Shown: piece by piece, positions 3,990-60,428 of the stretch
Layout of the letters: each line of letters opens with the position of its first letter
How positions within the stretch are numbered: the stretch's first letter is position 1
Source: Cyanidioschyzon merolae
Lineage: Eukaryota
Direction: 5' to 3' (one strand)
Assembly: GCA_000091205.1 (NCBI GenBank)
Contig: AP006499.2
Length of the DNA stretch: 64,000 nt
Program-made: the position numbers and the translations under genes
The notes under the pieces: model-generated
Databases searched by the model: none
What the model saw: the letters and a program-made list of their open reading frames with translations, nothing else
Told to the model about the DNA's origin: nothing

Positions 3990-4500
3990 TGCCGTCTTGC
4001 GGCGCCTGGTGCCGTATCCTACGATCACGTGCTTGTTCTCAGTGATCCCCTTGGCGAGTACTCTTCCGGCTGCACGTACAAGCGTACACTGTTCCGTTCA
4101 ATAAAAAATTTGTGGAACGTGATATTGTCCATGATGAAACTAGCACCCCTAGGATAATCGTGAATGGAGAAACTTCCGAGCCATGTCGATCCGCCTTCGC
4201 ACCTTTCCTGCAATTCCGGAACGCGCTCTCGCCACCCGAAGCGCTCGTAACGATGACTGAGGTTCGATCTCAAGGCCCTTGCACCGGCGCTATAGGCGCC
4301 AATGCTGTCGCTTTCGGCAGGCTCGGCACACGATAGCACGTATGACACGACCAGAATATCCGAGATGAAGTGTAGGTAATGTACTATGGAGGTAGGGCGT
4401 TTGATAGATACTTCATCGCGCACTGAAAAAACAACACAAAAAAGTAAGAAAAGAAAAATGCACATAATCGGAGAACGCTGGCCTAAGTACACGTTTTGTC
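3990..4500 (+). repeat. Degenerate probable copy (U) of the dispersed repeat family; only the core is reasonably recognisable.
   Basis: Block B (reverse complement GTGGAACGTGATATTGTCCATGATGAAAC at 4113-4140) matches Y 55368-55388 and X 47931-47953. A weak block-C-like stretch lies at about 4345-4375. The region is AT-richer than its surroundings. Confidence 0.35.
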
Positions 4501-5138
4501 AGTTGAAAAATCTCAAGACCCTTTTACGTGCAAAAAGAAGAGACAGGCGTCGCTTGGAGCGTATCCTGCGAGCGGTGCCATATGGCTGGCGAATTCTGTT
4601 TCGTCGATGACCGTAAAGCGAGGAGGATTACGCTTTCGAACGGCATCGACTATTTGACTTGAGCAATTCAGTGAGTGCTCGGTATGAGTTTGTGCACAAG
4701 TCGTTGCGGGAGAATGTCGGGCTTCTTTCCACGTCAACCTGGCCATGCTCATTGCTGCACCATCGAGTTTGCCTTGAAACAGAACGATCTAAAACAGCCA
4801 AGATTTCATGACTTGAGCATGCTTCACATGAAGTAAAGAGAGACATGGAGGCTTTCGGGTATAAATCGGATGATGATATCGGTTGTTTTGCGGACCCGTG
4901 TTAAAGCGCATCGCGAACCACATTGATTTCGGAGACGAAACGAATTCCAGTGACGAAAAGTAGAAGCATTCACTCCGAAAAAGAAGAGAGAACATATGAA
5001 AACTATTTATGAATCTATAATCCCTTATTCATGCTTTCCACATCTCGAGAAGCTCGACACCTAGAAAAGCTCGCGAAAAATCGAAAGGCAGGATCAGAGA
5101 GAATCGTTCCAAGCTCCATCTTCATCTGATATGGAGGT

Positions 5139-5510
5139 CGGACAAACGACATCCGCGTTGTTCAGGCAACAAGCGCCAGCGCGTTAACTCAAATAACAGA
5201 AGACGCGTTTCTTCGAGTCCGCTGTTAGGTTTTCAAGTCAGCGCGTAGACCAAACGACATCCGCGTTGCTCAGGCAACTAGCGCCAGCGCGCCGACTCGA
5301 GTTACAGAAGACGCCTCTCTTCAAGTCAGCGCGTAGACCAAACGACATCCGCGTTGTTCAGGCAACTAGCGCCAGCGCGCCGACTCGAGTTACAGAAGAC
5401 GCCTCTCTTCAAGTCAGCGCGTAGACCAAACGACATCCGCGTTGTTCAGGCAACTAGCGCCAGCGCGCCGACTCGAGTTACAGAAGACGCCTCTCTTCAA
5501 GTCCGCTGCT
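5139..5510. repeat. Minisatellite, about 88-bp unit x about 4.2 copies, ending 4 bp before the ALG8-like ATG.
   Basis: Direct tandem repetition of GACCAAACGACATCCGCGTTGTTCAGGCAACTAGCGCCAGCGCGCCGACTCGAGTTACAGAAGACGCCTCTCTTCAAGTCAGCGCGTA. Units are near-identical; the first unit carries a about 20-bp insertion. Confidence 0.9.
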
Positions 5511-7275: not shown

Positions 7276-7631
7276 AATGTAAAATATCTACTGTTAAGCA
7301 TGATATCGCTCGATCTCCCATGGAGCAGAGCACTTTGACAACACCAGGCACTATTAGGACAAGGCGAATGCGTGGTACTCTCGACGACTTTCGTCTGCGG
7401 TACCTGCGTGCGGTACAGCACCTTATCGCGTTGCACGACGATGCCGTGCCACCCTCACCTGAGTGCCAGTCTGCGTAGCTTCAAAAGCAAGCAACACGGT
7501 TTCCAGAAGTGCCAAAATACGCCCATATCATTCTCTGGAACGGAGTCTCCAGGCGACGGACTTTTTTATTGAGATATGGCACAAAGTCTGCACGCTGGAC
7601 GAGGAGTCTGTGTGATGACACCCTGAAAACA

Positions 7632-9307
7632 AACGCCGTTCTAAAGAAAAAGGCTGCTGTCGCCAGTGGTGCAGTAGTGGCGAGAAACCCGCCCTAGACA
7701 AAACGTCTCCAACTGAGGAGCAGACGCCTCCCAGTCTTGATCGACCGGCCATCTCCTACTGCTTCCAACTTCTTCTCATATAGGTCGACTTTGAGAGGTT
7801 GTCCAATAAAGTTTGTTCTTGTCGACTCTGGAGGTCTCTTCTCCAGCACCGCACATTTCCGTCCATTGAATGCGGCGTTAAAGTCTCAATTGACAAACTC
7901 CATACGTTTCTTGCCATTGGTTGTACTTACGAATGCGAGTAGTCCACGAACTTTTGCCCTCCTTTCCATTTGCTCTTCCGTCAGCGCTCCGTACTTTTTT
8001 ATACCCTCAGGGCTCCTCTGGCACTTTTTCCATCTCGACACTCTGAGGTGTACACTCCAGTTCGTGATGTGTATACGATGTTCGGAACTCATCTACAGGT
8101 ATCGTAACAAAACGCCTTGCGCACTCCTTGTACGTTCACGTCGTTGGAGCTGGTGTACACCCTTTTTTGGATTCCCAGCGTCCTGCTCCGTATGCGACTA
8201 CGAGCCTTTGAATTTCATCCTCCTTCAACGCACTCAACTCATTGAAAAAATTCGCGAACGCCCGCTGTTTCCCGCCGTATCGATTCATTCGCAAACGAGC
8301 CCACCGGGGCTTGGTATACTCCTCCCACAGCGTATCCCAATGCGCAATGCGAATATCATAACCATCGCTGTATCCAAGCGTGCGGAAGATGGTATTGATG
8401 GTAACGTACGTCAGAAAGCAATGCGTCTTTAGAGGTTATCGACAGCGAGATTCTACCGGGAATCAGGTATAACGAATGCGAGGAAGAAAACTGCTGCGTG
8501 GAATGCAGGAATGAAAGAGCACCTGGAAGCTTCGAGCGAGGCGACGAGCCGAGGCGCGGACTTTGAAGCTTTTCGAAAGTGTATGGAAGTTCGCATTGCG
8601 CATTGGGATACGCTGTGGGAGGAGTATGCCAAGCCCCGGTGGGCTCGTTTGCGAATGAATCGATACGGCGGGAAACAGCGGGCGTTCGCGAATTTTTTCA
8701 ATGAGTTGAGTGCCCTGAAGGAGGATGAAATTCAAAGGCTCGTAATCGCATACGGAGCAGGACGCTGGGAATCCAAAAAAGGGTGTACACCAGCTCCAAC
8801 GACGTGAACGTACAAGGAGTGCGCAAGGCGTTTTGTTACGATACCTGTAGATGAGTTCCGAACATCGTATACACATCACGAACTGGAGTGTACACCTCAG
8901 AGTGTCGAGATGGAAAAAGTGCCAGAGGAGCCCTGAGGGTATAAAAAAGTACGGAGCGCTGACGGAAGAGCAAATGGAAAGGAGGGCAAAAGTTCGTGGA
9001 CTACTCGCATTCGTAAGTACAACCAATGGCAAGAAACGTATGGAGTTTGTCAATTGAGACTTTAACGCCGCATTCAATGGACGGAAATGTGCGGTGCTGG
9101 ACAAGAGACCTCCAGAGTCGACAAGAACGAACTTTATTGGACAACCTCTCAAAGTCGACCTATATGAGAAGAAGTTGGAAGCAGTAGGAGATGGCCGGTC
9201 GATCAAGACTGGGAGGCGTCTGCTCCTCAGTTGGAGACGTTTTGTCTAGGGCGGGTTTCTCGCCACTACTGCACCACTGGCGACAGCAGCCTTTTTCTTT
9301 AGAACGG
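7632..9307. repeat. Large near-perfect inverted duplication (palindrome). The left arm is about 7632-8330, the unique spacer about 8330-8615 and the right arm about 8615-9307. Arms are about 99% identical.
   Basis: ORFs 7737-8432(+) and 8463-9206(-) translate to the same protein except for 2 substitutions and the C-termini. The 68-aa ORFs 7886-8092(-) and 8851-9057(+) are identical. Direct reading shows reverse-complement identity from AAACGCCGTTCTAAAGAAAAAGGCTGCTGTCGCC inward on both sides. Confidence 0.9.
8511..9170 (+). pseudogene. Possible decayed TnpB/Fanzor-like (OrfB zinc-ribbon) reading frame. It runs outward through the right arm, is interrupted by in-frame stops at 8805, 8934 and 9063, and is mirrored on the minus strand of the left arm.
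   Basis: Frame 0 reads ...LVIAYGAGRWESKKGCTPAPTT*TYKECARRFVTIPVDEFRTSYTHHELEC...EMCGAGQETSRVDKNELYW. This resembles the TnpB C-terminal pattern YKA..G..V.V.P..TSQ.C..CG ... C..CG..DRD.NAA.NI, with YKECARRFVTIPVDEFRTS matching YKAAWYGRTLIKVDPRNTSQ. The similarity is judged by eye only. Confidence 0.2.
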
Positions 9308-9373
9308 CGTTTTCTGTTCGTAGCGGATGCCAGAGAACTGACGTTCATTTGATTCGCAGAGTAGAGGACGCTT

Positions 9374-11794: not shown

Positions 11795-14700
11795 ATTCGT
11801 TTGTGGAAGCGAAGCGCGGCTTCAGCATGCGCACATTCGCGTGTGCAAAACTCCAGGTATTCGCAGCGCTCAGCTGCTGTTGCCCTTTGGCGGTTTCGAG
11901 CTCCACCTTCGTTCACTGTGCAACTGCTAAAGCCCACGTGTCCTCTTACACCAACGTTCAGTCGCGGTGCCGCCTGCACGAGTGCGTCTCGGAACGCTTC
12001 CGCTGGTGCGCAGGCGCTGTGCCTATGCGCCTGCGCTCATGCGATCCGTTGGACGAGCGCCGGCCAATGGCGCGGCCGCTTTCGCGCAATGTGGACCTAT
12101 CGTTTCTACGCAGTCCATGCGACAGATTCCGTAGATTTTATGGATGCTCGGGACGCTATATTTGGTACGGATGATATCGACCGTGTTTCGTCATTCCGGG
12201 ACGGTCGTCTGCGTTCAGTAAGCTTGCGTGATATCACGAATGACGTTAGCCAAGGTTCACAAGTACGTGTTTGTCTACGTCTCTGCGTACCTGCACGCAT
12301 CCAGAAACATGGAGCCCCGACCTTCGGATGCAGTGCAGAGCGATCGCTGTGGGCGGGACGCGATGGCGCTTGGCGCACGCTCCACAGCTGCCGGCTGAGT
12401 GCGCCATCGATACACTTGTCGCTACCCGAACAGGAGAATATCGAAGAGAAGAGCCATGTGCGTCTGGAGGAACGAGCGCAGTCAATTACGCTCTGTGCAG
12501 TGCATTCTGGAGTACGCGTGAACTCCAGAATGGTCTTTTGTTCTTGCTCGCAGGTATTCAAGAAAAGAAGTGAATCCCCTGGATCGCAGAAAGTTCGCGG
12601 AACGAATGTGTCCCGTCACTCCTAGATTGCAAAGAAAGGCCTTGCATGGACAAGTCAAATGTGCTATGGTCTGCAGGCGGATGCTTCCCTCTTTTCATGG
12701 TTCTTTTGCTGGACGTCGTCCATCGAAAATAGAAGTTACCAAACTCAAGCTCAACGACTGCCTCCGCCTGGATCCATTTCACGCCAAAGGACCTCCGAGA
12801 AAAAGCTGCAGGATGTGAAGCTTTCGCATCATGGATAAGAACGACGGTGACGATGCGCGAATGAACAAAGCGACAGGTACCCATGTACACGAGACCATCG
12901 CGCGATGAACAGCAAACGCTGTCGGCTTGGGAGGGAAACGCGGTCGTCCATCGCGGGACGGACGAATGTTCGGCTCATCCGGTGAGACTTGATTCGCGAG
13001 AAATTGCGGAGCTGTTCATGGGCACTCAGATAGGCGTGGAACGCAGTTCGCAACCGAAAGACAAGACGGAACGACGGCGGGAGCAGTCCGTGGGCCCTCT
13101 CAAGTGTCTGGATACGAAAAACTCGTCAAAAATACAGGATCGTTCAACACCTCATCCCTCGTAGAAGCGCTCCCCGGGGCCTTCTCTGTCACGCATTCCT
13201 CTGTCCTGCTCTGAGCCGACGTCGCATCCCATCACTCGCCAGCCGGAAAGGAATATGCTGCTGATACTGGGGTTGAGGTACTCTTCGTACCAGTCTATGC
13301 TGCCTTGTGCAAGCTCATCGAACGCGTCGTCTGTCGTGTTGGACGCCATCTCAAGGCTAGCGGATCTGAATACGAGTGGTTTCCACCCATGACATCGAAG
13401 GCAATCGAGAAAATCATTCTTCGACAATTCATTGTCTACCTTCAACAGCCCTGAATTGCATTGTTGTTGCTCGTCTGCTCGTGCGCGTGAGGGTAGCGCG
13501 AAGAAGCGCTGCGTTTCACGAGGCGCACCCCGTGTCCCTGGACTGCGTCGAATCCTCAGCGTGCTGGCGCAGCAGCATGGAAACTGACGGAGACGATCTC
13601 TCGAGATACTGATGGAGGCAAGTCACGAGCTGATGATGTCATATTCGTTCGCGGCGGTAGCCAGTGCCCCGGAAACGTCGCAGTGAGCTCGAGCGTCACC
13701 TCTGATCACCAGAGCTCAACGTGGCGTACTGGACCCCGAATCGCCGAACGTCATATCCAAGGAATGGTAGACACATCGTGCCTGGCTGGAAGCCTTGCCT
13801 CCTGCGGAAATGCGTGTTCCATGAACGAGCATCGTAGAGCAAAGCTGTAGCAGAGCCCGGATCCGAGCGCATTCGCCTTCTCAAGCTCCTCCCTGATGTC
13901 TTCCTGATTCGTCAGATCGAGGTCTATTGTATCACCAAAGAGTCTTCAGTGGTATATGGCCGCTCTCAGTGAGCTACGACTGGTCTCTGCAAGCAACGAT
14001 GAAGCATTATGACAACTTTACGAAAAGCACTGGTGGAGCTCGCTCAATCTTTTCCTTCAACACAATGGAAATAGAATGAACTGAACAGGGACGATCAACA
14101 CTTTCGGACGATCGACCTGCATGCACTTTGTGAAACCCTGGTCTCAGTCGAACAATGAGACTCATTTTCAACCGTTTTTAGGTAGATGAATAGAGATAGT
14201 TTCAGATACGCGGGAGTCCGGGTTCCGGGGCACCGCGGCCGTCGCCATACCAGCAGATCGATCGAGGCGGTGGAGCCCACGACCTCACAAGAAAACTAGA
14301 TGGGGCTGCGCATCTTCTTCCAATGCTAGGTTGCATCGCTGGCCGGGTATCGTGGCCACCAGGACGCATATGGTCAAGCGGAATGACAGCAACGGGATCG
14401 ATGTCGACACCCTGAGCATCCTGTCGAATCGAGACGGCTGTTTCATGCGCTTCATTCAGAGACAATATATGACCGTGCCATCGGCGCATGCGGACGATCT
14501 TTGGCAGGAGGATCTGACAGACTGCGCTGCGATCGCGAACAGTATCGGTGGTGCGGAGGCAACAGGCGTGGCTTTACCAGCCTGTTCAGTGCACCACATA
14601 AGGAGCTGATGGATGCGTCCCGTTATTTGGTCATAGCCTACCGCGCTGAATATGCTGTAGCGCGCATCATCTGCACTCCTGCTCCTTCGACGTGCGCGGA

Positions 14701-15039
14701 CAAGGAAAACAGGAATCGATTCTGTAAGATTCTCATCGATGCGTTCAGGACGACATCCACACATGAAGAGAATGGGAGCACGTTGCATGATCTAGAAAAG
14801 ATAACAGTGAAACACAGCCGAATGCTCGATACGGTGCTGGGTAAGCTGAGCGAGCGTCGGAAGGCGAGGTGCTCGAATAGCGAGGCTTTCTATGAGGTCA
14901 TTTCACCTGTGCAACAATGGACGTTACCGCTTTCCACACTGAGCATTCTACACCGCGATCAACTTGCCGGAATGCACCGTGCCTCGGCAACATCCAGCAG
15001 CTTTGCGTTGAGCGAAATTCCGTCAGAATCCCATACTAC

Positions 15040-15197
15040 AAAGTCTGCGCATTGTACTGAAACTCTGAAGACCTTTGGTGAATAGAGAACCACTGACCAG
15101 GAGCGAAGACTCCCAGAATCCTCTACGGCAAAGTCTGGGCAATGTACTGAAACGCTGAAGATGTTCGATGAAAAAGGAACCGGTGACCAGGAGCGAT
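15040..15197. repeat. Tandem duplication, about 90-bp unit x 2, about 85% identical.
   Basis: CAAAGTCTGCGCATTGTACTGAAACTCTGAAGACCTTTGGTGAATAGAGAACCACTGACCAGGAGCGA is followed by CAAAGTCTGGGCAATGTACTGAAACGCTGAAGATGTTCGATGAAAAAGGAACCGGTGACCAGGAGCGA. Confidence 0.8.
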
Positions 15198-25424: not shown

Positions 25425-25935
25425 TGCTGCGACCATCGCACGTGCGATGCAGGCAAGAAGCGATCCAAACGCAGTTTACCCGTTTTCTTCATGGTATAGG
25501 ACGCATGTATGGATCATCATCGCAAGCGTGATGCAGGCAAGAAGCGATCCAAACGCAGTTTACCCGTTTTCTTCATGGTATAGGACGCATGTATGGATCA
25601 TCATCGCACGTGCGATGCAGGCAAGAAGTGATCCAAACGCAGTTTACCCGTTTTCTTCATGGTATAGGACGCATGTATGGATCATCATCGCAAGCGTGAT
25701 GCAGGCAAGAAGTGATCCAAACGCAGTTTACCCGTTTTCTTCATGGTATAGGACGCATGTATGGATCATCATCGCAAGCGTGATGCAGGCAAGAAGTGAT
25801 CCAAACGCAGTTTACCCGTTTTCTTCATGGTATAGGACGCATGTATGGATCATCATCGCAAGCGTGATGCAGGCAAGAAGTGATCCAAACGCAGTTTACC
25901 CGTTTTCTTCATGGTATAGGACGCATGTATGGATC
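25425..25935. repeat. Minisatellite, 84-bp unit x about 6. The unit length is a multiple of 3 and it lies in frame within ORF 25447-26181.
   Basis: ATGCAGGCAAGAAG(C/T)GATCCAAACGCAGTTTACCCGTTTTCTTCATGGTATAGGACGCATGTATGGATCATCATCGCA(A/C)G(C/T)G is repeated and translates to 28-aa repeats MQARSDPNAVYPFSSWYRTHVWIIIASV. Confidence 0.9.
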
Positions 25936-26104
25936 ACCACCATCATCATCACCCCCGCAGGGATTCCCCAGCAACCGCAATACGAAAGTGGATCCCGCTG
26001 GTCTCTGCGGACGCAGAGCCACGGCCGGCACCAGGCATCGTCTCTGCCAGCGGCCTGCGCTGGGGTTCACCTGCGGACCGAAACAACTTGCCCGCTTCTG
26101 GTTC

Positions 26105-27106
26105 ATGGACGGTTCCGAGAATGGACAAGACTCAATTGCGGAAAAACTACGGCGCCGACTCTTGGAAAAGATGCTCGCTGAGCGCGAAGCGCTTCGAGAG
26201 CAGGAACGGCAGGCGCCAACGACGTCGGGGCCAGCACCGTCTCTGCCAGCGGCAACGCGCTCTACCGACCCAGACGAGGCTACTGAGCCGAGGCATCAAG
26301 TAGCTCGCGAGCTGTCTATTTCAGACTCGCAGCCAACACCTGCGGAGGTCTCTCAGGGAGCGTTGCCGGCAGCAGGAACCTCGTCGGGACCCGCGCTGGC
26401 GAGCGAGCACCAGCGTTTCGAGGCGGCAACTTCGGGGAACGCTGCTTCCACGACCCGGCAGTCTCCGGCTGTCGAGTCTGCAGCGTTATCGGTACCGGGG
26501 AACACCGAGCCTTGGCTCCGCGGACAACCAGCTGGCGACGATGCGCTGCCTGCTGAAACCAGGCGCTCAGCGAGTCTTTACGGAGCCGGGTGCGTAGAAG
26601 ACACCGACCGCAACGCTCATTCTGCCACGGAACTCAAAACGTCGAGTCCGTCGGCACTCCCCGACCCGGAGGATGCGCATGCCCTGGCAAGTCGCACGAG
26701 TGGGACACCCGAGTCCGGGACTTCGTCTGAGCGCTCGCTGGCCACATGCTCGGTTTCGCCTGTACTGGGACCCGCCGACTCGTCTGAGCGGCATGCAGCT
26801 ATGCACTGGACAGCGGATACACCCGAGTTCTTCGTAGGCGCGGATCATGGTGCCTCGGCGGAAGCCGTTGATCCCCAGCCACTGTCAACAAAGACGCAGG
26901 ACGACAGACACTCACGAGACAGACAGGGCGCGACGGAGCCCAGCTCATTACCAGGAACGCAAGAAACGGCATTCGTTCGCATGGGGTATTCAGCGGAGGA
27001 GCTACAGCGGATCGAGTGCGCTGTTCAGAGTTTTTGTGCATATGCGCTGGCGGTTGCGGAGCGCACATTTCAGCGTGTGCAACGTGCAGAACGCGAGGTA
27101 TCGTAG
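26105..27106 (+). CDS. Hypothetical S/A/P/T-rich protein with no recognisable domain. The ORF could extend upstream into the 84-bp array (from 25447 or 25880).
   Basis: Long ORF. The N-terminus MDGSENGQDSIAEKLRRRLLEKMLAEREALREQERQ is coiled-coil-like, the middle is an acidic S/P-rich low-complexity stretch, and the C-terminus YSAEELQRIECAVQSFCAYALAVAERTFQRVQRAEREV is structured-looking. Confidence 0.3.
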   Translation: MDGSENGQDSIAEKLRRRLLEKMLAEREALREQERQAPTTSGPAPSLPAATRSTDPDEATEPRHQVARELSISDSQPTPAEVSQGALPAAGTSSGPALASEHQRFEAATSGNAASTTRQSPAVESAALSVPGNTEPWLRGQPAGDDALPAETRRSASLYGAGCVEDTDRNAHSATELKTSSPSALPDPEDAHALASRTSGTPESGTSSERSLATCSVSPVLGPADSSERHAAMHWTADTPEFFVGADHGASAEAVDPQPLSTKTQDDRHSRDRQGATEPSSLPGTQETAFVRMGYSAEELQRIECAVQSFCAYALAVAERTFQRVQRAEREVS

Positions 27107-28632: not shown

Positions 28633-29439
28633 GCACCCGCACCTGTTCGTTGGAAGAAACGTCGCAGGCGACGACGATCGCTGCGCTCCTTCTTGTGGTT
28701 CGATCTTCTCCCCGACGACAGTTCCGTGAAAAGCTTACCGCAATTGGAACCACTGATACGGTAACAAGTCCGCCAGGACACCCAAGTTTGCAGTTGACGC
28801 CTCCGATTCAGCGTATACACGGAACGGGACTGAACACGAACAAGTGCGCGCTGAGAGAGCGCACTCCGCCACAGGGCCTCGCGCTGGTACGCACCGGGAG
28901 GTATTCGCTCTGCTGTCGCACAGGGGAAGCGGGAGTGACGGCCTCTTTTCTGGTGCTTCTGGCACGCTGAAGTGTCTAGCAGGGAACAGGGTTTGCAAAG
29001 CCGGGTACCGGCAAACAGGGAATATCTGAGGGCGTCTGGGTCGGTCTATCGATCCGGCAACGGAAGCAGGCAAGCGGCGATACACGGAACGCTGCCACTG
29101 TGCCACAGCAGGAGTGATCGAGCGCGTGCGATAAGCACGATGCCGTACTCTTTTTGTGATGACCTTGACTGCACGCTTTGTGATCGAGTGCTGTTGCTCG
29201 TGCTCCAAGGAAAACGCGTGGCTGTGGCGTGGTGTCGCGGGCTCGACGCTTGCACGCCGCGTATCCACTCGGGAGCCGGGGCACTGGGTCGCCCGAGTCA
29301 ACACGAGTCGGGGATGCGGTCCAGCGAGCGCTGCGCTTTTCGCGGAATGACCGCTCGACACCTGTGTCCGATAAGAATGGAGCGATGAACTGTACGCTCT
29401 GTTCCTGACTTGTAACTCATTTCTGATCTTTCGTAGATG

Positions 29440-30150
29440 TACGACATCGAAAAGCGATGTCCTGCACTAAAGACTTTCCGATGCACGGGTTGCTTTAGGA
29501 TTCGTAGAGGTGTTTCCGGAGAGGGCTCTTCGATGCTCTGCCGCTGGAACTCGATACGCCATTGGAAGCCCCGATGATTCGCGACGTTCTCGGACGAGGG
29601 TTCCTAAAACAACCGATATTATGAGGTCCTGTTGACGTATAAGCATCCGTGCGTCTCCCTGGCATACTCGTAATATGATCCAATCACGATTTCTTCCAGT
29701 TTTCGATCGATCGGTCACCATGCAACTCGTTGGCACAGCGATTCGTGCTTCCGAATGAACGTTGACCAAGCTCGACGGTGCTCCTTGACGACTTGTATAC
29801 AGGCTGCTACCAAAAGTTCACTGAACTTATTACCCCAAATCAGAGAATCCGTTCGAATGACAAATCCGCATCTCCTTGTGGCCGCCGACGAACCCGGACT
29901 TGACAGCGGCATGGTGCCTCTCAATAGAGACATTCGCAGAGGGCCGTGTCTCTTCTGTTTACATGGAATGGGGTCTTGGACTCGGACGTGAGTCATCGAC
30001 GCAATCGTTTCGACTAGAGCGTGGGTCGCTGCCATGCACGACAGGAACGTAGACGAATCGAGATTGGTGAGATTGATCTCTGGAGCAGTACATGGGAGCA
30101 TTCCCGGTACGGCGTCTCTGAGTCATGTCACTGCCCGACGCCATTCGCGC
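29440..30150 (-). repeat. Partial copy (W) of the dispersed repeat family.
   Basis: Block C TTGGACTCGGACGTGAGTCATCGACGCAATCG at 29977-30015 is preceded by GGGCCGTGTCTCTTCTGTTT, matching X 47761-47834. A block D-like stretch AAAAGTTCACTGAAC lies at about 29815. A degenerate block F reverse complement CGACATCGAAAAGCGATGTCC lies at 29447-29470. The encoded peptide ...ETIASMTHVRVQDP matches X ...AAMTQVRVQNP and Y ...AAITKARVQNT. Confidence 0.6.
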
Positions 30151-30892
30151 GTGAAGGCTTTGATGACGTAGAGGCGAACGGGCGACGCCTCGAGCACCAC
30201 GAGGGAGCGCTTCATGACCGGCGCTCTATCGAAGCGCATCGGTTCGAGGGAACAAAGAACAGAGACTGAACGCTAACTACCAACAAGATGACGAACTCTT
30301 CTCCCGTTACGATAAAGATTAAAACGGGAAAAAGTTTCCGTATCTTCGAAAGTTTACCTTCGAGGTGGAAGTTCCAGCGAGCCGGACGAGTCTCCCGGGC
30401 TAGTGCTTCATGCTACCACCAGTGGCAGGTGCTGTGGCGAAATCTGAGCAACTGGTCCGCAACGCCATTCATTCTGCGACAAGGGTGCCGGTAGCCTGTG
30501 CCTAGGCGTTGCGGACCAGTCCTACTGGACTCCCAGTATATCGCTTCGCGCTATCGTAGGCAGTACGTCTGTCCGCGCAGCTTGCAGACTCCCAGCATGA
30601 TCATGAATCCCAATTCCTGCCGAGTAAAGCACTCCTCGAGCCGACGCACTCAGTGGTATGGCAGCAGGGTTCTGTCCCCGTGATGTATCTGCTCCAGCGG
30701 TTTAGGCGCTACAGCCGCAGCTCAGTGCAGGCACTCGGCGCTCGATAGCACGTACAAAACGACCGGTTTATCCGAGCGGAGCTATATGTAGTGGAACTTG
30801 ATGATAAGCGCATCATGATAGAAGCTTTTTCGATAACCATGATCCATCGTGTAGTCTGGGACCTGTGGTCAACGTAAACGTTTTGTCATCGA

Positions 30893-30990
30893 AAAGAAGC
30901 AGCAGTAGCAGTAGTAGCAGCAGCAGCAGTAGCAGTAGTAGCAGCAGTAGCAGCAGTAGCAGCAGTAGCAGCAGTAGCAGCAGTAGCAGT

Positions 30991-31032
<42 letters not shown>

Positions 31033-36488: not shown

Positions 36489-36663
36489 TCAGGGCGTGTT
36501 TGCATTCGGGGAGGTCTCCGTCGCCGGTGGAGGCGGTACCCCTCGCCGTACCTGCGACCAGTCCACCTGGGTATCTTTCCCGAAGAAAGACTTGGCACCC
36601 TGACTAGACGGTGCCTTGCGAGGCGCTCGTTCGGAGGCAGGCACTGCACCAGCGTCAGCGTCA

Positions 36664-36696
<33 letters not shown>

Positions 36697-37937: not shown

Positions 37938-38099
37938 AGACGTCGCTGAGAAAAACGAAAACGCTCAACAGCAAGCGCCCGACGGTTGCCCGAGGGCCGG
38001 CGTCGTCGACCGCGCCCTGCACTGGACGCACGACAAGTGCCCCGTCTGCTTTTCGGGGCTAGGCAGCCGTTTTCCGCGTGAGTTCCATGGCAAAGTAGG

Positions 38100-39050
38100 C
38101 ATTGAGAGGCAACAGGTCTTTCAAAACGGGTGTACAGTCTACAAGTTAGATCGCTTTTCATGAAGTTGAACACAAGCGTTTGCGGGTTTTTTTCTGAGAC
38201 GGTTTCTGTTTCAAGTCTTCGAATATCTCTGGCTTTATCTGCGAAGGTGCCTCGTTTCCCTCGAGCTCTGTCGTCAGCGATGGAAAGTTGTTCAAGGCAG
38301 CGTTAAAGTCCCGATTTTGCGCTTTTGGCTGGTGTCGACGCAAACGATGCACTGATGGAAACAGCAATCTATACTGTGCTTGCCATGTTCATGGTGTCTC
38401 CTGACACCCTCGGTGCGCCTTTTGTTCCTGTGACCCTTGCCTGTGATAGGGTGTTCCGGTGTACGTCCACCGGACACCTTGTCCTTCGAGTGCCAGTCTG
38501 TGTTGCTTAAGAGGCAGAAACCGCTGGAAGCGTATCCCGCGAAGGGTAGCAAGCTGCTGTCGAATGCGGTTTCGTTGATGGTCTCGTAGGGAATTGGATT
38601 TGTCTTTCGAGAGGAATCGGCTTTTTTTACGAAAGAGAATTTGCGAATTTTGGGCATGAGCTTGTGAACAAGTCATTCAGGGGCGATTTCGAGTATCTTT
38701 TCTCCTGATCCATCCATCGGCGCGAATCCCTGCGCCCACGAGTCGCCTCGAAACGGAAACATCGGAAGCTTGAAGCGTACCGGCCTCGGACATGCTGCAT
38801 CTAAGCAAAAGGAGAAGAATGGAGGCTTGCACGTATGCGTTGTACAATGGTATCGGTTATTTCACGAAGCCTTGTCCGAGAGCGCCGCGAATCGTCTTGA
38901 TGCTCGCGGCGTGACGAATTCCTTCTGCAAAGCCTCGAATTACTCACCCCGAGACTACAACCACGGATCCTGAGACCATCTCTGAATCCCGACGCACGTA
39001 TTGCCGCACTTTGAATATCGAGGCTGCACATCTAAACCAGTTCGGAAATG
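38100..39050 (+). repeat. Copy (V) of the dispersed repeat family; the 3' part is well preserved and the 5' part degenerate.
   Basis: Block D reverse complement GGCATGAGCTTGTGAACAAGTC is at 38653-38680. Block E CGCGAATCGTCTTGAT is at 38886-38901. Block F ATTGCCGCACTTTGAATATC is at 39000-39019. Spacings match copies X and Z (D to F about 345 bp; E to F about 115 bp). Confidence 0.7.
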
Positions 39051-39701
39051 ACGAGAAAGTCGAGGGCAGAGCGAGCAATCCGGTGTTCCACCTCAATGCT
39101 GGACAGGTGCGGACTGAACCCGAGCTCGCATCGAAAGGTATGTATGTGGGACACGATGGACTGTTCACAGCGCGCCTCCTAATACGAGTGCCTCTAGATG
39201 AAATGGATCGTGAACAGGCAGCGAGAAGCGCTCGATTGGCACCTCCGATGTTTCGTTCTTTAGTTTTCATTTGAGACAGGTGCCAGTTCTATGCCGTTCA
39301 GTGCCTTGGTCTCGATGCGCGCTTGAGAGAGCTCTTGGGTCGTGCAGGGCGGCTCCTTCTGCGCAGCGTGTTTGAAAAGGAGACTTTTGTGCAATGCGCT
39401 CGATAGAAGCACTCGTCTATTGATCCGGTATCGCGAATATGGCACAGAAGCACCGCCAAAACGCCCGCAATGGAACCAGGGAGCACTGCAGCATGAATCG
39501 CGGCTGAATAAAAATTGCAGCTGCTTCCGCTTTGGCTGCGTTTGGGTGATGGAAAGCGAGATTGTCCAGGAACAGGACAGAGGAACGTCCAAAGTAGGAG
39601 CCAGGGCGTGCTGCGATGAAGGATGCGCTGGTGAACGATCGCATCCGTCTGGCGCTATCAAAGCGACAAGTTGATTCGGTCGCCGCAAGCGCTGATATTT
39701 T

Positions 39702-42759: not shown

Positions 42760-43014
42760 TCAACTGTTAGAAAGCCCTCAGACCAAGCGAACCGTAATAC
42801 CTCCGCGAACGTCACGTTTAGACGAACAGCGAAACAGAAATATCTAGACCTGTGCTCGTGATCACCAAATAACAACCGCCATCCGTCTCCGAGATTCGCA
42901 TGGAGTGGCCTCGCGCGCGCGTTTACCGCCTCGCTGCGAGCCGCCGCTGCGTGTATTTTTAGAGACAGTTAGGGAAGAAGATGTATAATATTGTGCCGAT
43001 GAGCTGTCCGCGGT

Positions 43015-43455
43015 GCATCGCGATCACTATGCCCATAAATGAATCTTTAGGCACGTATATGGAAGTATCTCTACTTCGTTGCCAGCATCCAAGGGTACCG
43101 GGCGCATCGCGATCATGATGCCCATAAACGAACCTTTAGGCACGTATATGGAAGTGTCTCTACTTCGTTGCCAGCATCCAAGGGTACCGGGCGCATCGCG
43201 ATCATGATGCCCATAAACGAACCTTTAGGCACGTATATGGAAGTATCTCTACTTTGTTGTCAGCATCCAAGCGTACCGGGCGCATCGCGATCATGATGCC
43301 CATAAATGAACCTTTAGGAACCTTTAGCCAAGTATCTCTACTTCGTTGTCGGCATCCAAGCGTACCGGGCGCATCGCGATCATGATGCCCATAAATGAAC
43401 CTTTAGGAACCTTTAGCGAAGTATCTCTACTTCGTTGTCAGCATCGAAAGGTGCC
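43015..43455. repeat. Minisatellite, about 88-90-bp unit x about 5. The last two units are variants.
   Basis: Repeated unit: GCATCGCGATCATGATGCCCATAAACGAACCTTTAGGCACGTATATGGAAGTATCTCTACTTCGTTGCCAGCATCCAAGGGTACCGGGC. Confidence 0.9.
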
Positions 43456-43881
43456 GGGCGCTTTTCTCGTTTGGCGCGCATCTACGTGCGCTTTTGTCGA
43501 GAGCTGCGTGCACCAACGAACTGCGCACACCTGGTTGGTGTGCAGCTACGCTGCATGTTCCTCGGGGGCAAACTGTGAAGGCGTACCAACGTCAACGCAC
43601 TTGAGAGCAGGGCGTCTCGGTCTCAGTCTCCGAAGCGCACAGGCAAGCGTTTGCCGCTTCGAAGCAGCAGGGCGACGCTCGCTCGTGCCGCCCCAGCCGT
43701 GACGGCTTGTCGCTCGCACCGGACGGCTCGTGCGAATAGAGGCCGCCAGCTGCTACAGCACCCTCACTGTATTCCAAAATCTCGTTGTGTAGGTCTACAA
43801 TTCAGACGCTGAGACCGGTGCTGGTGGCGAGCAACGGTCTCAGAACCGTCACCACTTGCAAGCGACCCTGAGCATCCGACT

Positions 43882-46929: not shown

Positions 46930-47249
46930 CCAGCAACGAAAGAGCCGTTACACGAGCTTTGACCTGCATCGGAACCGAGGTCGAATGAGCGGCGAGCGCG
47001 TAGGCGACAAGCTGCAGCCGCTTCGCCCTGGGCTCGTTCAGCTCTGCATTCATTCCGCAGTGTGCATGTGATAAGCCTTGATAGCATGTGGGTATTTGCT
47101 GCTCCTGTCAAGCAACCGAATCATATACAGTGGAATGGAACGATCGGGCATGAAACCTGGCGACTCTGCGGGATCCGGGTCGGTGCACTAGACCCGTGTT
47201 CGATGACAATGCCTCCCTGAACTGGGCGCTCGATTCCAACCGTTCGACT

Positions 47250-48700
47250 TTGGCCCAGGGTTTTCATACACAGAGTCTCGACATCCAAAGTGCAGCAATA
47301 AGCGCCGACGCATTCCTAGGTAGTGCCCGCATGCCCGATAGTCTTTTCGGGATGTCTGCTTCGAGTTGTTGCAGCACGAAGTTGTCTTGGCACCGGCATT
47401 GCGATCCTTCGCGACGTCCTCGAATAAGGGTTCGTGAAATCATCGATATCGCTATTGGATTTATACCTACAAGCCGCAATTTTATTCTTTTCCGGACATT
47501 TTGAAAACAGGAACGCTTCACGTTTTCGATTTTTTCTTCGAGGGAGCTCATGATGACGGGAATTCCCTCCGTTGGGCCGATGAGAAAGAATCTCGACGTC
47601 GTCTCGTGACGACTCATTCACAAGCTCATGCCGAAAGTTCACCGAAGATGGCACGTCAAATAATCGTTTCTATTCTATAGACGAGGCCCGACCTCTGAAA
47701 GAGATCCAGGTAACATTATTCGACGGAAACATGCTACGGCTGTCGGGATGCGCTCGCAGGGGCTCCCGTCTCTTCTGATTGCTTGGAAAAGGATTCTGGA
47801 CTCGGACTTGAGTCATCGCAGCGCTCGCTTCCGGTGGGGAGTGCGTTACCGCTTTGCACCAGGGGGGTTTGCTTAGACGGAAAGAAAATTTCTCGAGAAC
47901 ATTTCGAGCCTGGATTCCTCGTCCAGTACTGGATTCATCATGAACAACATTGCCGTCCGCAAATCCATCATCGAATGGAACAGCAGGCGCTCGTTTTTCC
48001 AGCGAACAGCGTCGTCGCTGACGGGATCGCTCATAACAAGCCCGTACTCTTTGGGGACGCCATCAGGTGCGAAAACGGTGCACGGTATCGTGCCCGGCAT
48101 TCTCGATTGGTCAAGTGCATATCCGTCGAGCGATGAACGAAGGCGTCTCGAGCCACAGTGCAGCCCATGGAGGAGAAGCTGAAGTGCTTGACATACGAGA
48201 ACACCCGAACCGGAGCCAGACGCCACCGTTGCAAATCGGATATCGACGCAGTATGCAAAATCAAGATGAAAATGGCAAGAGAAGCGCAGATCGCTTCTTC
48301 TCTCTGTGCATGATATGCGTTGACAACCGGCAAAAGGGCGAAATTGTGACGTGCACGCCACCATGAACCTCATTCGACTGCTGACAGAGGAGCTGGAGGC
48401 ACAGGAGAAACCAGCGTATTGAAAAACGTGCATCAGACAGAGGGAAACAAACCAGTCGCAAAAAAAGCTCGCAAAGACTGGTGTTCACGAAATCTGGAAG
48501 AGGCCCGACATTTATCGCATACAACCGAGGTAGCTGTCTGGGTCTCCATCCATTTCAGTTTGGAATGGGCGTTGTGCAATACCGCGAAACCTTGGAGTCA
48601 GCTGTACGCTCGAGAATATCGACTTTGACCTACCAGTGCATTTTTGCGAATGATGCTCATGCCCGCAGAGCGCTCTAGTCCGGGAAATGAACATGCAGTG
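47250..48700 (-). repeat. Full-length copy (X) of the dispersed repeat family.
   Basis: Block F reverse complement GACATCCAAAGTGCAGCAAT is at 47280-47299. Block D TTCACAAGCTCATGCCGAAAGTTCACC is at 47615-47648. Block C TGGACTCGGACTTGAGTCATCGCAGCGCTCG is at 47798-47834. Block B GGATTCATCATGAACAACATTGC is at 47931-47953. Block A ATTCGACTGCTGACAGAGGAGCTGGAG is at 48371-48397. The interior is about 65-75% identical to Y with indels. Confidence 0.8.
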
Positions 48701-54027: not shown

Positions 54028-54513
54028 TCATTCTGGACTAGTCATCGTCCGGTCGTCGTCGTCGTCGTCTCCGCCGTCGTCCTCCGACTCGGGCGCATAG
54101 AGTCCTATTCGATAGTCTTTTAGGAGCCACGCCACGTTCACCCACGGGTGCATCTCATCAAACACAGCTGTGCTATCCTTTCCGGCCGCTTCTATGAACA
54201 GGATTTCCGCACCACCAGGGTGGAATCTGAAGTAAGCGGTTATGTCATACACAACTCCGTGGATAGCCGTCCAGGCGTCAGTAGCACTGCCATGTGACTC
54301 CAGTTCTCGTTTACTGACCCGTCGCGAGGACTGTTGGCCCGCAGCTGCAATCGCTGTTGCTCGAGGGTCTCGGGGTCGACTCAACCAGGCCAGAGGCGGT
54401 GGGGCTTTTGCCGGCTGTCGAGCAAATATTCTGGTCTTGTTGCTCCCCATCTGCGTCGCAGTAGACGCGATAGGAAGCATCCAGACCTTGCTGGCTCCTG
54501 CACGCCTGAACAA
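54028..54513 (-). CDS. Cytochrome b5-like heme-binding domain protein with an acidic C-terminal tail.
   Basis: KRELESHGSATDAWTAIHGVVYDITAYFRFHPGGAEILFIEAAGKDSTAVFDEMHPW contains the HPGG heme-ligand motif and the flanking His typical of cytochrome b5 domains. Confidence 0.8.
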   Translation of the reverse strand: MFRRAGASKVWMLPIASTATQMGSNKTRIFARQPAKAPPPLAWLSRPRDPRATAIAAAGQQSSRRVSKRELESHGSATDAWTAIHGVVYDITAYFRFHPGGAEILFIEAAGKDSTAVFDEMHPWVNVAWLLKDYRIGLYAPESEDDGGDDDDDDRTMTSPE

Positions 54514-54744
54514 TCAACGAAAACGGTGCGTTGTGAACGGTGCGGCGGCGTTGGTGCTGGGCGATCCCAGGATCCTACCTGCCACGATGGCCCCTGTTCC
54601 GAAGAGCCAACCCCGGTACTCGTATCCGATGAGCATGGAGTTATGAAGGACATGCTATGTTTCCGCCTTTTGAAGTTTTGTGGATTTGGTTTTGACGAAC
54701 AATCTCGGTATTCGTCGTATGGCAAGAACGGCACAGGGATTCAT

Positions 54745-55990
54745 ACGTAATTTTCGGAGTCAAAGTCGTCGTTTCGGAGTGGCTACTCGGAGTTTTTGCT
54801 ATCGAAATCTTTCACATCTCTGTGATGATCATGACTCATGACGTCTTCAAGCAAGCGTTCGTAACACAACCGATGTCAATATCGGGTTCATACACACAAG
54901 CGCCCAGTCTTCACTATTCCTTGCGTGCGGCGTGCTCAAACCACGCAATCTTCAAGTTTACAACGCTCGTGTTTCCGGGAGACGCATCGCCGGGGCGATT
55001 CGCGACCTTGGATTAAGGCCAAACAAAACCCGACTTTATCTCTTGGGGACTTGTTCACTCGTTCATGCCGAAAGCTCACGGAGCTTGTCACGTCGAATAA
55101 CTAATCCTGTCCGAGAGACGAATGCTCTTCTCTCTGGGGCCATCGACGAAACAGCATTGAACGGCAGGATGATATCTCTCGCAGGGGATTTGCTCCCAGT
55201 GACTCCTGTTCCTTCTTTCCGCATCGCATAGTGTTTTGGACTCGGGCTTTTGTTATCGCAGCGATCGCTGCCGGTGCCGCGTGCGTCATTGCATTGCGCA
55301 ACGCGCGCGTAGACGAGTCGAAAGTTCTCAGCTGGATCACCAGCGTGGATTTTCCCTCCCGTCCTTGTTCCATCATGGACAACATCGCTTTCCACGTGCC
55401 TTTGTTCGAATAGAACAGTCTGCGATTGCACTCTCGGAAGAGAGAGGACTCGCCCAGGGAATCGCCCAGAACAGGCTTGTTATCGTAGGGTACTGTACCG
55501 ACACAGTCGGCTTCCAGGGGCATGTACCGAGCGATGAAGCAAGTGCTCGTGCGTAGTAGGGCGGTCCTCTGACCAGGAGATGCTGTGATTGTATGACAGC
55601 GCCTGATTACAGTCTAGTGTCCAGGCTGCAAATGGCCCAGCGATGCTGTCCACGAAGAACATGAAACGGTAAGCATAACCAAGACTGCAAAATTCGCATG
55701 CGCATGAAAAAAAAAAGTCTCGATCACATGCGGAAACGCCCAAGTCGAGACTTGAATACTGCCATCAACATCCTTCGACTGCTGACAACGAAGCTGGAGA
55801 GAAAGAGAGACTTAAACCCGGAGATGCGCGAGAGGAAACGCGAGCAATCGCAGATACAACCTACCAAGGCCGGTGTTGATGGGAATCAGGAGCGACCCAA
55901 ACAATAGCATGGACTCCCGAATGAGAGAACTGGGACCCATTCCAGATTCATCCGATTTCGATGGACTATCAGCAGAGATGGAATATACAG
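54745..55990 (-). repeat. Full-length copy (Y) of the dispersed repeat family; block F is degenerate or absent.
   Basis: Block D TTCACTCGTTCATGCCGAAAGCTCACGG is at 55053-55085. Block C TTGGACTCGGGCTTTTGTTATCGCAGCGATCG is at 55237-55275. Block B TTCCATCATGGACAACATCGC is at 55368-55388. Block A TTCGACTGCTGACAACGAAGCTGGAG is at 55774-55798. The extended region is alignable to X and Z. Confidence 0.8.
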
Positions 55991-58799: not shown

Positions 58800-60230
58800 C
58801 GAAACCCGTCTGCGACTGGAATGGAGCAGGCCCGATGAGCGAACACGGGCTTACACGCGATACCCATGTCAGCATAAAATGGAACAGGTCTACTTACCTA
58901 GCAGGAGCGTACACCCCAAAGTTTTCGTCTCATTCCATCGCCATGGACGTCGGCCTTTACGGGATGTTTCTGCGACTGTTTCCCTTCTCTCTCTCTCTGT
59001 ATATTCTCTGGCTCGCCATACGCCGGTTTCCCCTGTTCCTCCAGCTGCGTTGTCAGCAGTCTCAGAATGCTGTCGCCGGTGTTCAAGTCCCGAATTCATC
59101 GCTTCCGGCTGTTTCAGACAGAATTCGCGCAAAGACAGTAGTTGCGTTCTACGCCTCGGTTGCCGTTTGCACGACTTGCTTCGTGTAGATCCTCGTTGCG
59201 CCCTTCACAGTACTGACACGTGACCATGGTCGGGTATGCCCGTACGTCCTGGGCACCTGCTTCCCCGAGTGCTGCCTGCCACATGCACTGGACGCTCACC
59301 TCAGGGGACGACCCCATTTCCGTGCCCAGTGCCGTACGCGATGAACACGGTCTTCCGCGAGGCGATACACTCGGCGAGCATGCTGACTGCTGTGCGCGCT
59401 CAAACACACACACACACACACACACAGAGACACACATACAGACACAGACACATACTGACACACAGATACACAGACTCACACACGTCCACGCTGCTTCATT
59501 CGAGAGCGGATTTTTCTGGGACCCGATGTTGCTCATCGTGAGACAGGGACCGGAAGGAGCACTCACGCTGGAGAACAAGTCGCGAAATCTCGACCCGTCA
59601 TCGCTGCATTCGTGTCCAGCGTCCGTCACCGCGCTGCACACACGAAGCAAGCACTGCGATGACTCAAGCCCGAGCTCGGGAAGATTCTGTACTTGAAAGC
59701 AAGCTCTCGTAGCGTACTCCACAAAACGTATCACGCTGGTGCCGATTCCCGTTTCTTCGCTAGAGAGAGACAGCGCGGGATTCACCTCCTGAAGCACATC
59801 CATCCTCTTGTCGTGACTGGCTCAGTGAGCCTTCAGCATGAGCCCGTGAACGAAACCTCAAGCGTCGGTGTCGACGGTGCCCGGTCGACAATCCAACAGT
59901 GCGAGTCGCTGCGCTCATGGCTGGCATAGGGAGAAAAAAAGATTCGAAAACTTGAAGAATCCGTAATGTAAGCATGTCGATCGTAAGGCAAGCGGGAGAA
60001 CGGATGCTTGTTGATACGGGTCGGTCAAAGATACCGGTTACTTGTCGAACAACTGTTCAATAGCTTCGCGAATCGTCTTGATTCCATTTCCGTAAAAACC
60101 TTAAGCGGGACAGCGTGGAAGAGGCCACGCCCAACTGACGACCCAGCATCCTAAAACTACGCATGAATCCACACACCTTGATTGCAGCACTTTGAATATC
60201 CATGCGATGCACGAAAAAAAACACGAGTCC
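58800..60230 (+). repeat. Full-length copy (Z) of the dispersed repeat family, containing an internal (CA)n / (ACACAG)-like microsatellite at about 59400-59470.
   Basis: Block A reverse complement CTCCAGCTGCGTTGTCAGCAGTCTCAG is at 59039-59065. Block B reverse complement GATGTTGCTCATCGTGA is at 59525-59541. Block C reverse complement GCGATGACTCAAGCCCGAGCTCGGGAAGATTCTG is at 59656-59690. Block D reverse complement CTTCAGCATGAGCCCGTGAA is at 59831-59852. Block E CGCGAATCGTCTTGAT is at 60068-60083. Block F ATTGCAGCACTTTGAATATC is at 60181-60200, followed by an A8 run. Confidence 0.8.
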
Positions 60231-60428
60231 GGAAAGATATCGAAAGACCTGAACAGAGCGACAAGTTCTGTTCGCCGTCTTCATCGGGCTGGGTCATGGA
60301 AGGACACCGCGACCGCCGCTGCGACAACTTTCCTCCGCAGCGTTCGCCACTGGCAACACCTCTAACGTCGACTGTAACACTCGACGGGAAGGGACCGACG
60401 ACCCGGTGCGACCAAAGTCCAGATCATT

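Follow-up and report, generated by a model that had tools for sequence, protein, structure and literature searches.

The DNA considered here is a stretch of 64,000 nucleotides from contig AP006499.2 (assembly GCA_000091205.1) of the cyanidiophycean red alga Cyanidioschyzon merolae; the whole stretch is called the window below. Its long open reading frames (ORFs), found on either strand, are eukaryotic housekeeping genes that lack introns, namely XRN, DHX37, ALG6/8, an RNase PH/KH protein and a class I tRNA synthetase. Between genes lie six strongly diverged, collinear copies of one repeat family, named U to Z, which sum to 7.7 kb or 12% of the window and are all intergenic. These repeats are very probably (probability about 0.88) dead copies of a single non-autonomous, internally deleted transposon family of the Tc1/mariner-IS630 type that carries a tail derived from a Fanzor gene. 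Contigs and loci are cited by L numbers and certain ORFs by P numbers.

A preliminary description of the window, made from its letters alone, had pointed to six regions sharing an ordered set of short conserved blocks (A to F) and filling 10-12% of the DNA. The regions are where it put them and the occupancy is right: they align collinearly across about 1.3 kb with MAFFT, a family DNA profile matches at exactly six places in the window, protein profiles are concordant, and neither DNA nor protein profiles reveal a seventh copy there. The extents needed correction, X running from 47191 to 48571 and U from 3486 to 5137 instead of about 3990-4500. The identity of 65-75% proposed for the sequence between blocks agrees with the short segments that self-BLASTN of the window finds between the six places (64-76%) but not with the copies compared globally from end to end, which are only 50-60% identical. 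When up to three mismatches are allowed, A, C and F are each matched in three copies, where shuffled sequence is expected to give 0.00-0.04 matches. Searching with a DNA profile of the six copies recovers the family on contigs L005 (E=2.5e-185) and L006 (E=4e-70), and metagenome contigs yield 11 further distinct copies. Since independent copies lie on other contigs, the family is dispersed, as had been suggested, and is not a local duplication. The consensus used here is built from 19 copies, six from the window and 13 from public contigs; an earlier version was built from eight.

The identity of the family becomes visible in the consensus. The majority consensus of eight copies has an almost uninterrupted frame of about 400 codons, on the other strand than the one first taken as forward, and matches Pfam DDE_3 (E=8.8e-11) and the NCBIfam IS630 transposase (E=1.1e-13). 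The 19-copy consensus matches NCBIfam NF033545 (IS630) at E=1.2e-18 with 67.6 bits, which is under the curated cutoff of 100, and Pfam PF13358 (DDE_3) at E=4.2e-10 with 40.1 bits, which is over the cutoff of 28.6. Two helix-turn-helix (HTH) models, HTH_33 (E=4e-4) and HTH_Tnp_Tc3_2 (E=9e-4), match as well. The consensus transposase is 40% identical over 261 amino acids (aa) to the intact transposases of L027 and L028 (E=1e-55). The part that is kept comprises transposase codons 1 to about 235 with two HTH motifs, the first catalytic aspartate in 'AIDETAF' and the second in 'FIMDNIAFHK'. The catalytic triad is incomplete, having these two aspartate motifs only, and transposase homology ends about seven residues past the second. 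Two other readings were rejected. A DD(~130)D spacing with block A as third catalytic motif fails because the intact relatives are DD35E and block A aligns to Fanzor. Similarly, 'YSPRGSP' is not a leftover of 'PPYSPxxNPIE', as its register differs from that of the relatives and its bases align in another frame to the Fanzor stretch 'QRALARAAD'.

Directly after 'MDNIAFHK', and in another frame than the transposase, the consensus continues with ~180 codons from the end of a Fanzor1/TnpB gene. This half matches PF07282, the Cas12f1-like TNB domain, at E=1.2e-7 and 32.2 bits (gathering cutoff 26.3) and positions 329-388 of the 389-position NCBIfam TnpB profile at E=1e-3. In L028 the transposase is followed by an ORF whose aa 566-725 are 42% identical to this half (E=7e-25), with homology starting at about aa 546. 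The C-terminal signature of Fanzor and TnpB proteins is present (TTVKCHRC...CMKC...RNRD), consisting of a zinc ribbon TTxxC..C...C..C and the RuvC-III motif RDLNAAINIL; it corresponds to the pattern [TS][TS]xxC4-x(5,50)-RD given by Bao & Jurka as the Fanzor/TnpB signature (PMC3627910). In the consensus the signature stretch reads 'HLTTVKCHRCEG...FRLCMKCVDNSRKRRNRDLNAAINIL', and the Fanzor codons carry 'VVDIWEHLTTVKCHRCEG...FRLCMKCVDNSRKRRNRDLNAAINILRLL', the stretch that matches PF07282 and the extreme C-terminus of TnpB. The WED and REC lobes are missing, as is the RuvC-I aspartate that a full protein has 125-275 residues upstream, so this is a gene fragment and not a full Fanzor. The junction with the transposase half falls at consensus position ~970-975. 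A reading of the whole element as one decayed TnpB/Fanzor gene, taken from 'CxxC...RDLNxAINIL', was discarded: the 5' two-thirds match an IS630-type transposase and the TnpB assignment holds for the 3' third only.

The consensus also has ends of the kind expected for a transposon. Its terminal inverted repeats (TIRs) are 26-27 bp long, left and right being identical at 24 of 27 positions. The dinucleotide TA adjoins 8 of 18 left ends and 7 of 17 right ends (15/35), against a background of 0.029 (p<1e-7 even with one base of slack), and is found at both ends of L005, L006, L030 and L057 and of the complete relative L061. Read in gene orientation, the layout is TA, left TIR, a spacer of ~50 nt, transposase part, Fanzor part, a spacer of ~25 nt, right TIR and TA. 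Coordinates of the copies and of the parts of copy X are given in the table.

Table. Copies of the family in the window, parts of copy X, and protein motifs that coincide with the conserved blocks
Feature	Position	Strand	Description
Copy X	47191-48571	+	Complete, 1381 bp; whole-model DNA profile match, ends from the 19-copy alignment
Left TIR of X	47191-47216	+	GACCCGTGTTCGATGACAATGCCTCC; family consensus YACCCRTGTCAGAWKAAAATGGAACA
Right TIR of X	48545-48571	+	From consensus ends and 19-copy alignment
TA beside left end of X	47189-47190	.	Putative target-site duplication; right flank 48572-48573 now TT
Transposase remnant in X	47268-47967	+	Codons 1 to ~235; 3 stops, 5 frameshifts
Fanzor remnant in X	47968-48513	+	~180 codons, TT..C..C zinc ribbon, RuvC-III; block A at 48373-48398
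Copy U	3486-5137	-	Complete; extra insertion of ~250 bp at 4268-4521
Copy V	38088-39109	-	Both ends kept; internal deletion of ~0.4 kb spanning the transposase/Fanzor junction; profile match in two pieces
Copy W	29359-30255	+	Left end and transposase part only; right end and most of the Fanzor part gone
Copy Y	54617-55963	+	Complete, 1347 bp; left end ~100 bp upstream of a divergent cytochrome b5 gene
Copy Z	58863-60296	-	Complete; CA-rich microsatellite insertion 59402-59483; TA at 58861-58862 adjoins right end
Block F			Start of HTH1 'LDIQSAAI'
Block E			'NQDDSRRPR'
Block D			'CSQAHAES'
Block C			'GSWTRT.VIAAIAS'
Block B			Second catalytic motif 'FIMDNIAFHK'
Block A			Fanzor RuvC-III 'RDLNAAINILRLLTTELE'

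Intact relatives in metagenomes, two-gene elements of 3.2 kb, show the likely layout of the ancestor. A search with the transposase profile returned six more decayed ORF fragments together with intact-looking relatives annotated as DDE_3; one of these, P0133, is intact, with 'MDNIAFHKS...PPYSPECNPIE' and D-35-E spacing. The consensus protein finds 49 loci among JGI metagenome contigs, of which 34 are also matched by the DNA profile and represent the 11 distinct copies. Another 11, more distant loci have an ORF of 304-345 aa that matches the family transposase profile with E from 1e-46 to 1e-12, and the three of these scanned against Pfam match DDE_3 at E=1e-25 to 1e-28. At eight of these loci, amounting to six distinct elements, the transposase is followed on the same strand by an ORF of 677-794 aa. 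Of the five long ORFs that were scanned, three have a TNB domain at their end; the ORF of L065 resembles the Guillardia theta Fanzor1 (PDB 9cer, E=1.8e-43) and that of L061 the Spizellomyces Fanzor (8gkh, E=4e-9). The entire 3243-nt record of L061 (JACCDU010271300.1) is one element, running from TA and TIR (27/31) through transposase and Fanzor1 to TIR and TA, and makes a convenient intact reference for mariner-Fanzor1 elements. In the relatives, the terminal motif of the family stands upstream of the transposase gene at a distance of 70-80 nt (15/15 in L027, 22/27 in L033); in L020 the motif CACCTATGTCAGG has TA directly before it, and the terminal ends of this element type, in relatives such as L061, are YACCCRTGTCAG. 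Thus the best relatives of the transposase half and of the Fanzor half are one and the same set of two-gene elements, in which the parts follow each other as they do in the 1.38-kb unit and point the same way.

Stops and frameshifts interrupt the two halves in each of the 19 copies; the preliminary description, too, had found no copy intact and frames that shift between copies. Identity to the consensus is 63-77% (a divergence of ~27%), the closest copies are 64-69% identical to each other and the best pair of distinct loci reaches 69%. Over 19 copies, column conservation is almost level within the element (0.67-0.74), against 0.49 in the flanks. The contrast that had been described between strongly conserved motifs and a decaying background is weak. 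Conservation by codon position 1/2/3 is 0.73/0.73/0.72. The master copy was already non-coding, its descendants have drifted neutrally, and they are old and dead. The blocks, proposed as cis or regulatory sites, are local maxima that coincide with protein motifs of the ancestral genes and are under no present constraint. The strand labels of the preliminary description are reversed, the genes reading forward in X, Y and W and backward in U, V and Z, and the peptides it quoted (LQLRCQQS..., AAMTQVRVQ...) are antisense readings. Its statement that no TIR, target-site duplication or transposase is visible gives way to the consensus TIRs, the TA enrichment and the IS630/DDE_3 domain, and the family, which it could place in no superfamily, is assigned by the IS630/DDE_3 and TnpB/Fanzor TNB matches.

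These observations can be accommodated in a simple history. The ancestor would have been an element of ~3.2-3.4 kb that had TIRs of 26-30 bp, inserted at TA and bore two genes on one strand, first that for a DD35E-type transposase of ~320 aa and then that for a Fanzor1 of ~700-800 aa, a TnpB-like RNA-guided nuclease. An internal deletion of ~2 kb would have fused transposase codon ~235 to about the last 180 Fanzor codons, taking the transposase C-terminus with its third catalytic residue and at least the first ~550 Fanzor codons and sparing both element ends. As the relatives have their two genes in the same order and orientation, an internal deletion is the simplest reading. The resulting 1.38-kb unit could make neither protein, its halves lying in different frames and a stop probably being present already. 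It was presumably amplified into intergenic DNA by a transposase acting in trans, and it has decayed neutrally since. Family membership, domain content, TIRs, TA enrichment, the relatives' pair of genes, the place of the junction and neutral decay are seen in the sequences themselves; that a deletion took place, that the unit was moved in trans, how old it is and how abundant it is across the genome we infer from the comparisons presented here.

Several points weigh against this interpretation. Even when frames are corrected, just one of eight single copies reaches E=1e-3 with DDE_3; single copies being unconvincing, the identification depends on consensus and profile reconstruction. Likewise, a search of single copies for TIRs gives chance-level matches only, so the TIRs are recognisable in the consensus and not individually, and TA is retained at just 43% of the ends. 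The junction is placed from relatives that are merely ~40% identical. The L028 Fanzor ORF, which is nearest to the Fanzor half of the family, has no sequence match of its own to the solved Fanzor structures, and its link to Fanzor is therefore through the Pfam domain and the architecture. No autonomous partner with the family ends appears in C. merolae-like sequence, all 34 of the loci found by the DNA profile having the short structure, and the species of the 11 metagenome copies is unverified.

The best of the rival explanations equates the copies with a repeat already known from C. merolae. A 3.2-kb repeat in 253 copies, with a truncated ORF like WSV486 of WSSV (white spot syndrome virus), was reported from the genome (Nozaki 2007; PMC1955436), and from the same alga Bao & Jurka (2013) describe CMe-1A, a Fanzor1 element of 3 kb that lacks TIRs, is left unclassified and has ~150 copies (PMC3627910). 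WSSV has one Fanzor1 (PMC3627910), which would be WSV486. The truncated ORF of the described repeat weakly resembles a Fanzor-type protein, and the family in the window likewise ends in a truncated Fanzor ORF. The identity is nevertheless very unlikely. CMe-1A as described is ~3-3.2 kb long, ~80% identical to its consensus, without TIRs and present in 150-253 copies or about one per 65-110 kb, whereas the family here measures 1.38 kb, bears TIRs, matches its consensus at 63-77% identity and is present six times within 64 kb. The window also has separate Fanzor1 pseudogene fragments that do not resemble the six copies at the DNA level and are a closer fit to the published repeat.

These fragments (7793-9150 and 13965-14800) belong to another Fanzor1 lineage than the six copies, with 42-56% aa identity to L044. 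The first is an inverted repeat, 7631-8353 and 8590-9312, whose arms are 99% identical and represent pseudogenised C-terminal halves of a Fanzor1 gene. Fanzor homology in the arms extends over 7793-8330 on the minus strand and 8352-9150 on the plus strand, interrupted by in-frame stops, and includes the motifs 'VIAYGAGR...IPVDEFRTSYTHHE...VN*DFNAAFN'. The arms are 45-56% identical in aa to the L044 Fanzor ORF (E=1e-53), and the syntenic gap in the related species with 77% protein identity is 1.2 kb shorter. This inverted repeat, at 7.6-9.3 kb of the window, is probably the CMe-1A/'WSV486-like' repeat. A third fragment of the same lineage, more decayed, lies at 13965-14800 on the plus strand; with 27-42% identity (E=1e-25) it aligns to the L044 Fanzor over aa 339-612, and it has several in-frame stops. 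A search of the ends of both Fanzor1 regions, at 7.6-9.3 kb and at 14-15.8 kb, found no TIRs.

It could also be supposed that the 1.38-kb unit was autonomous and made one chimeric protein, in which the RuvC-III aspartate of the Fanzor C-terminus completed the RNase-H-like site of the transposase N-terminus. Both parents have RNase-H-like folds, the halves are directly adjacent on the same strand, and the frames jointly span ~415 codons between the ends. In the consensus, though, the halves are out of frame, and TGA at position 819 is the plurality codon (7 of 19 copies), at about the frequency expected if the master already had it. No frame shows a codon-position effect or a synonymous excess, and raw copies have neither a synonymous excess nor a stop signal in any frame, a signal emerging only in the consensus. 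Such a protein would also be without the third catalytic residue of the transposase and without the RuvC-I and RuvC-II parts of Fanzor. A functional chimera is thus extremely unlikely.

The preliminary description had left open a choice between a transposable element, which is retained, and a set of small genes, for proteins or non-coding RNAs, that evolve fast and share conserved regulatory or RNA motifs. The latter can draw on called ORFs of 120-186 aa that overlap copies (P0121-P0125) and on four short Logan contigs, L016-L019, that start almost identically within Y and reach the cytochrome b5 gene, as the 5' end of a transcript could, yet it is scarcely credible: the ORFs vary in frame and strand and none is common to the copies, a BLOSUM block test has no strand preference (4186 vs 4427), an Rfam gathering scan and a tRNA scan find no known RNA in the window, and for the Fanzor 3' part and right end RNAalifold gives 0 pairs among 17 decayed copies, the consensus folding at z=-1.45. 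Protein searches with the ORFs recovered just pieces of the same copies and two new ones. The four contigs, which are independent, begin within 35 bases (55756-55790) in the Fanzor remnant of Y and pass antisense through the element into the cytochrome b5 gene (54028-54513, minus strand). Their starts lie at the edge of the most repeated stretch, 27 nt exactly shared with another copy; they could mark a transposon-derived transcription start with a long leader or an assembly break at that stretch.

Within the deletion-derivative interpretation there is room for one further idea. The Fanzor 3' end and the right end may have been retained as a source of guide (omega) RNA, making the units 'guide-only' hitch-hikers, which is quite unlikely. 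The copies give no consensus structure and no Rfam match for such an RNA, which their decay may have obscured. The chance is equally slim that they borrowed both activities from full-length elements, the transposase for cut-and-paste and the Fanzor nuclease for homing to emptied TA sites. If true, this would help to explain how the units outnumber their parents and fill intergenic DNA in a genome credited with 0.7% transposons.

Comparison with related sequences gives some measure of insertion and abundance. Logan (SRA-run) and JGI contigs that are 99.0-99.6% identical to the window have W, X and Y at the same sites, and W is also present in the 99%-identical strain L008. The XRN protein is 99% identical to a Logan-only protein, 77% to one from hot-spring metagenomes and 62% to that of Cyanidium caldarium. 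The SRA runs are presumably those of the Yellowstone Lemonade Creek samples, in which a C. merolae 10D-like alga is described as dominant (PMC11662350), and the host would accordingly be 10D-like. In a related hot-spring species whose proteins are 77% identical (L001, JGI Ga0531430_00182), the family is absent along 22 kb of synteny, and the gap is shorter by 2.1 kb where U lies in the window and by 1.3 kb where W lies. L001 has the same gene order as window positions 1426-33250 in ~22 instead of ~32 kb, and is more compact partly because the transposon copies and the Fanzor inverted repeat are absent. At least 27 distinct copies are recognised, among them the 19 aligned, L071, L072 and the ORF fragments P0126, P0127, P0129 and P0130. 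Six peptides were used in the metagenome scan; each of the 11 copies captured contains exactly one of them, and none of 10 independently known copies contains any, so the scan caught a small minority. Judged from these sequences, the true copy number is probably in the hundreds.

Other features of the window stand apart from the family or only touch it. The insertion in U at 4268-4521 is A-rich and found in no other copy. Beside V, at 39549-39698 on the minus strand, a weak trace 'VLFLDNLAFHH' matches the L027 transposase by tblastn at an insignificant E=0.028 and could be an older relic of a related element or a chance match. Tandem arrays occur at 5143-5508, 15010-15196, 25434-25939 and 43012-43461, with periods of ~88, 91, 84 and 89 bp and units that are 80-98% identical. 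The 84-bp array sits in the long ORFs 25447-26181 and 25880-27106, the other periods not being multiples of three. A simple tract at 30977-31032 approximates the reverse complement of 36661-36695 (94-100% over 30-35 nt, with 3-nt slips) and is probably low-complexity sequence, coding or intergenic.

C. merolae serves as a model of the "simplest" free-living eukaryotic genome, and its transposon content appears to be underestimated. If the family extends genome-wide, a sizeable part of the intergenic DNA of this model alga would be old transposon debris overlooked by annotation with BLAST and repeat libraries, red algae would be a further lineage whose Fanzor genes moved on mariner-type elements, and there would be a lead for classifying the unclassified CMe-1A/'WSV486' repeat. 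Transposons were reported to make up 0.7% of the genome, with eight 'bacterial-type' class II elements (PMC1955436). P-MITE lists no C. merolae MITEs, transposable elements of the miniature inverted-repeat type (PMC3964958), and a re-annotation with EDTA gives Mutator, Helitron, CACTA and unknown elements and no Tc1/mariner (preprint 10.1101/2022.10.24.513474). No paper describing the window family was found in the literature, Repbase being outside the comparison.

The family can be set against four known systems. CMe-1A/'WSV486-like' repeats share with it the host lineage, the dispersed intergenic placement and a truncated Fanzor-type ORF; by their published description the window family differs from them in size, divergence (~27 instead of ~20%), TIRs, transposase remnant and Fanzor lineage. 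With the DD35E transposases of the IS630/Tc1-mariner (ITm) group it has in common the paired HTH, the motifs 'DE(T/S)xF' and 'DNxxxH', short TIRs and the TA target, whereas the third catalytic residue and the transposase C-terminus are deleted. Like Ds of Ac, dSpm, deleted mariners and Stowaway-type MITEs, it has kept its ends, lost its coding capacity, depends on functions supplied in trans and outnumbers any detectable autonomous copy. At 1.38 kb the unit is outside the usual definition of MITEs (less than ~800 bp, no coding remnant, homogeneous high copy number); about 90% of it is recognisable coding remnant and its deletion fuses two different genes. Mariner/Tc1 elements with Fanzor1 genes and TA duplications, among them PGv-1 and PUl-1 (PMC3627910), are a further parallel; they, as do the intact relatives found here (L027, L028, L033, L044, L061 and L065), combine transposase and Fanzor1 in a TIR-bounded, TA-flanked element. 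In contrast to these, the window family is a non-coding, decayed deletion derivative of 1.38 kb in a cyanidiophycean red alga. For general transposon biology it is an ordinary element, and for this alga a newly described one.

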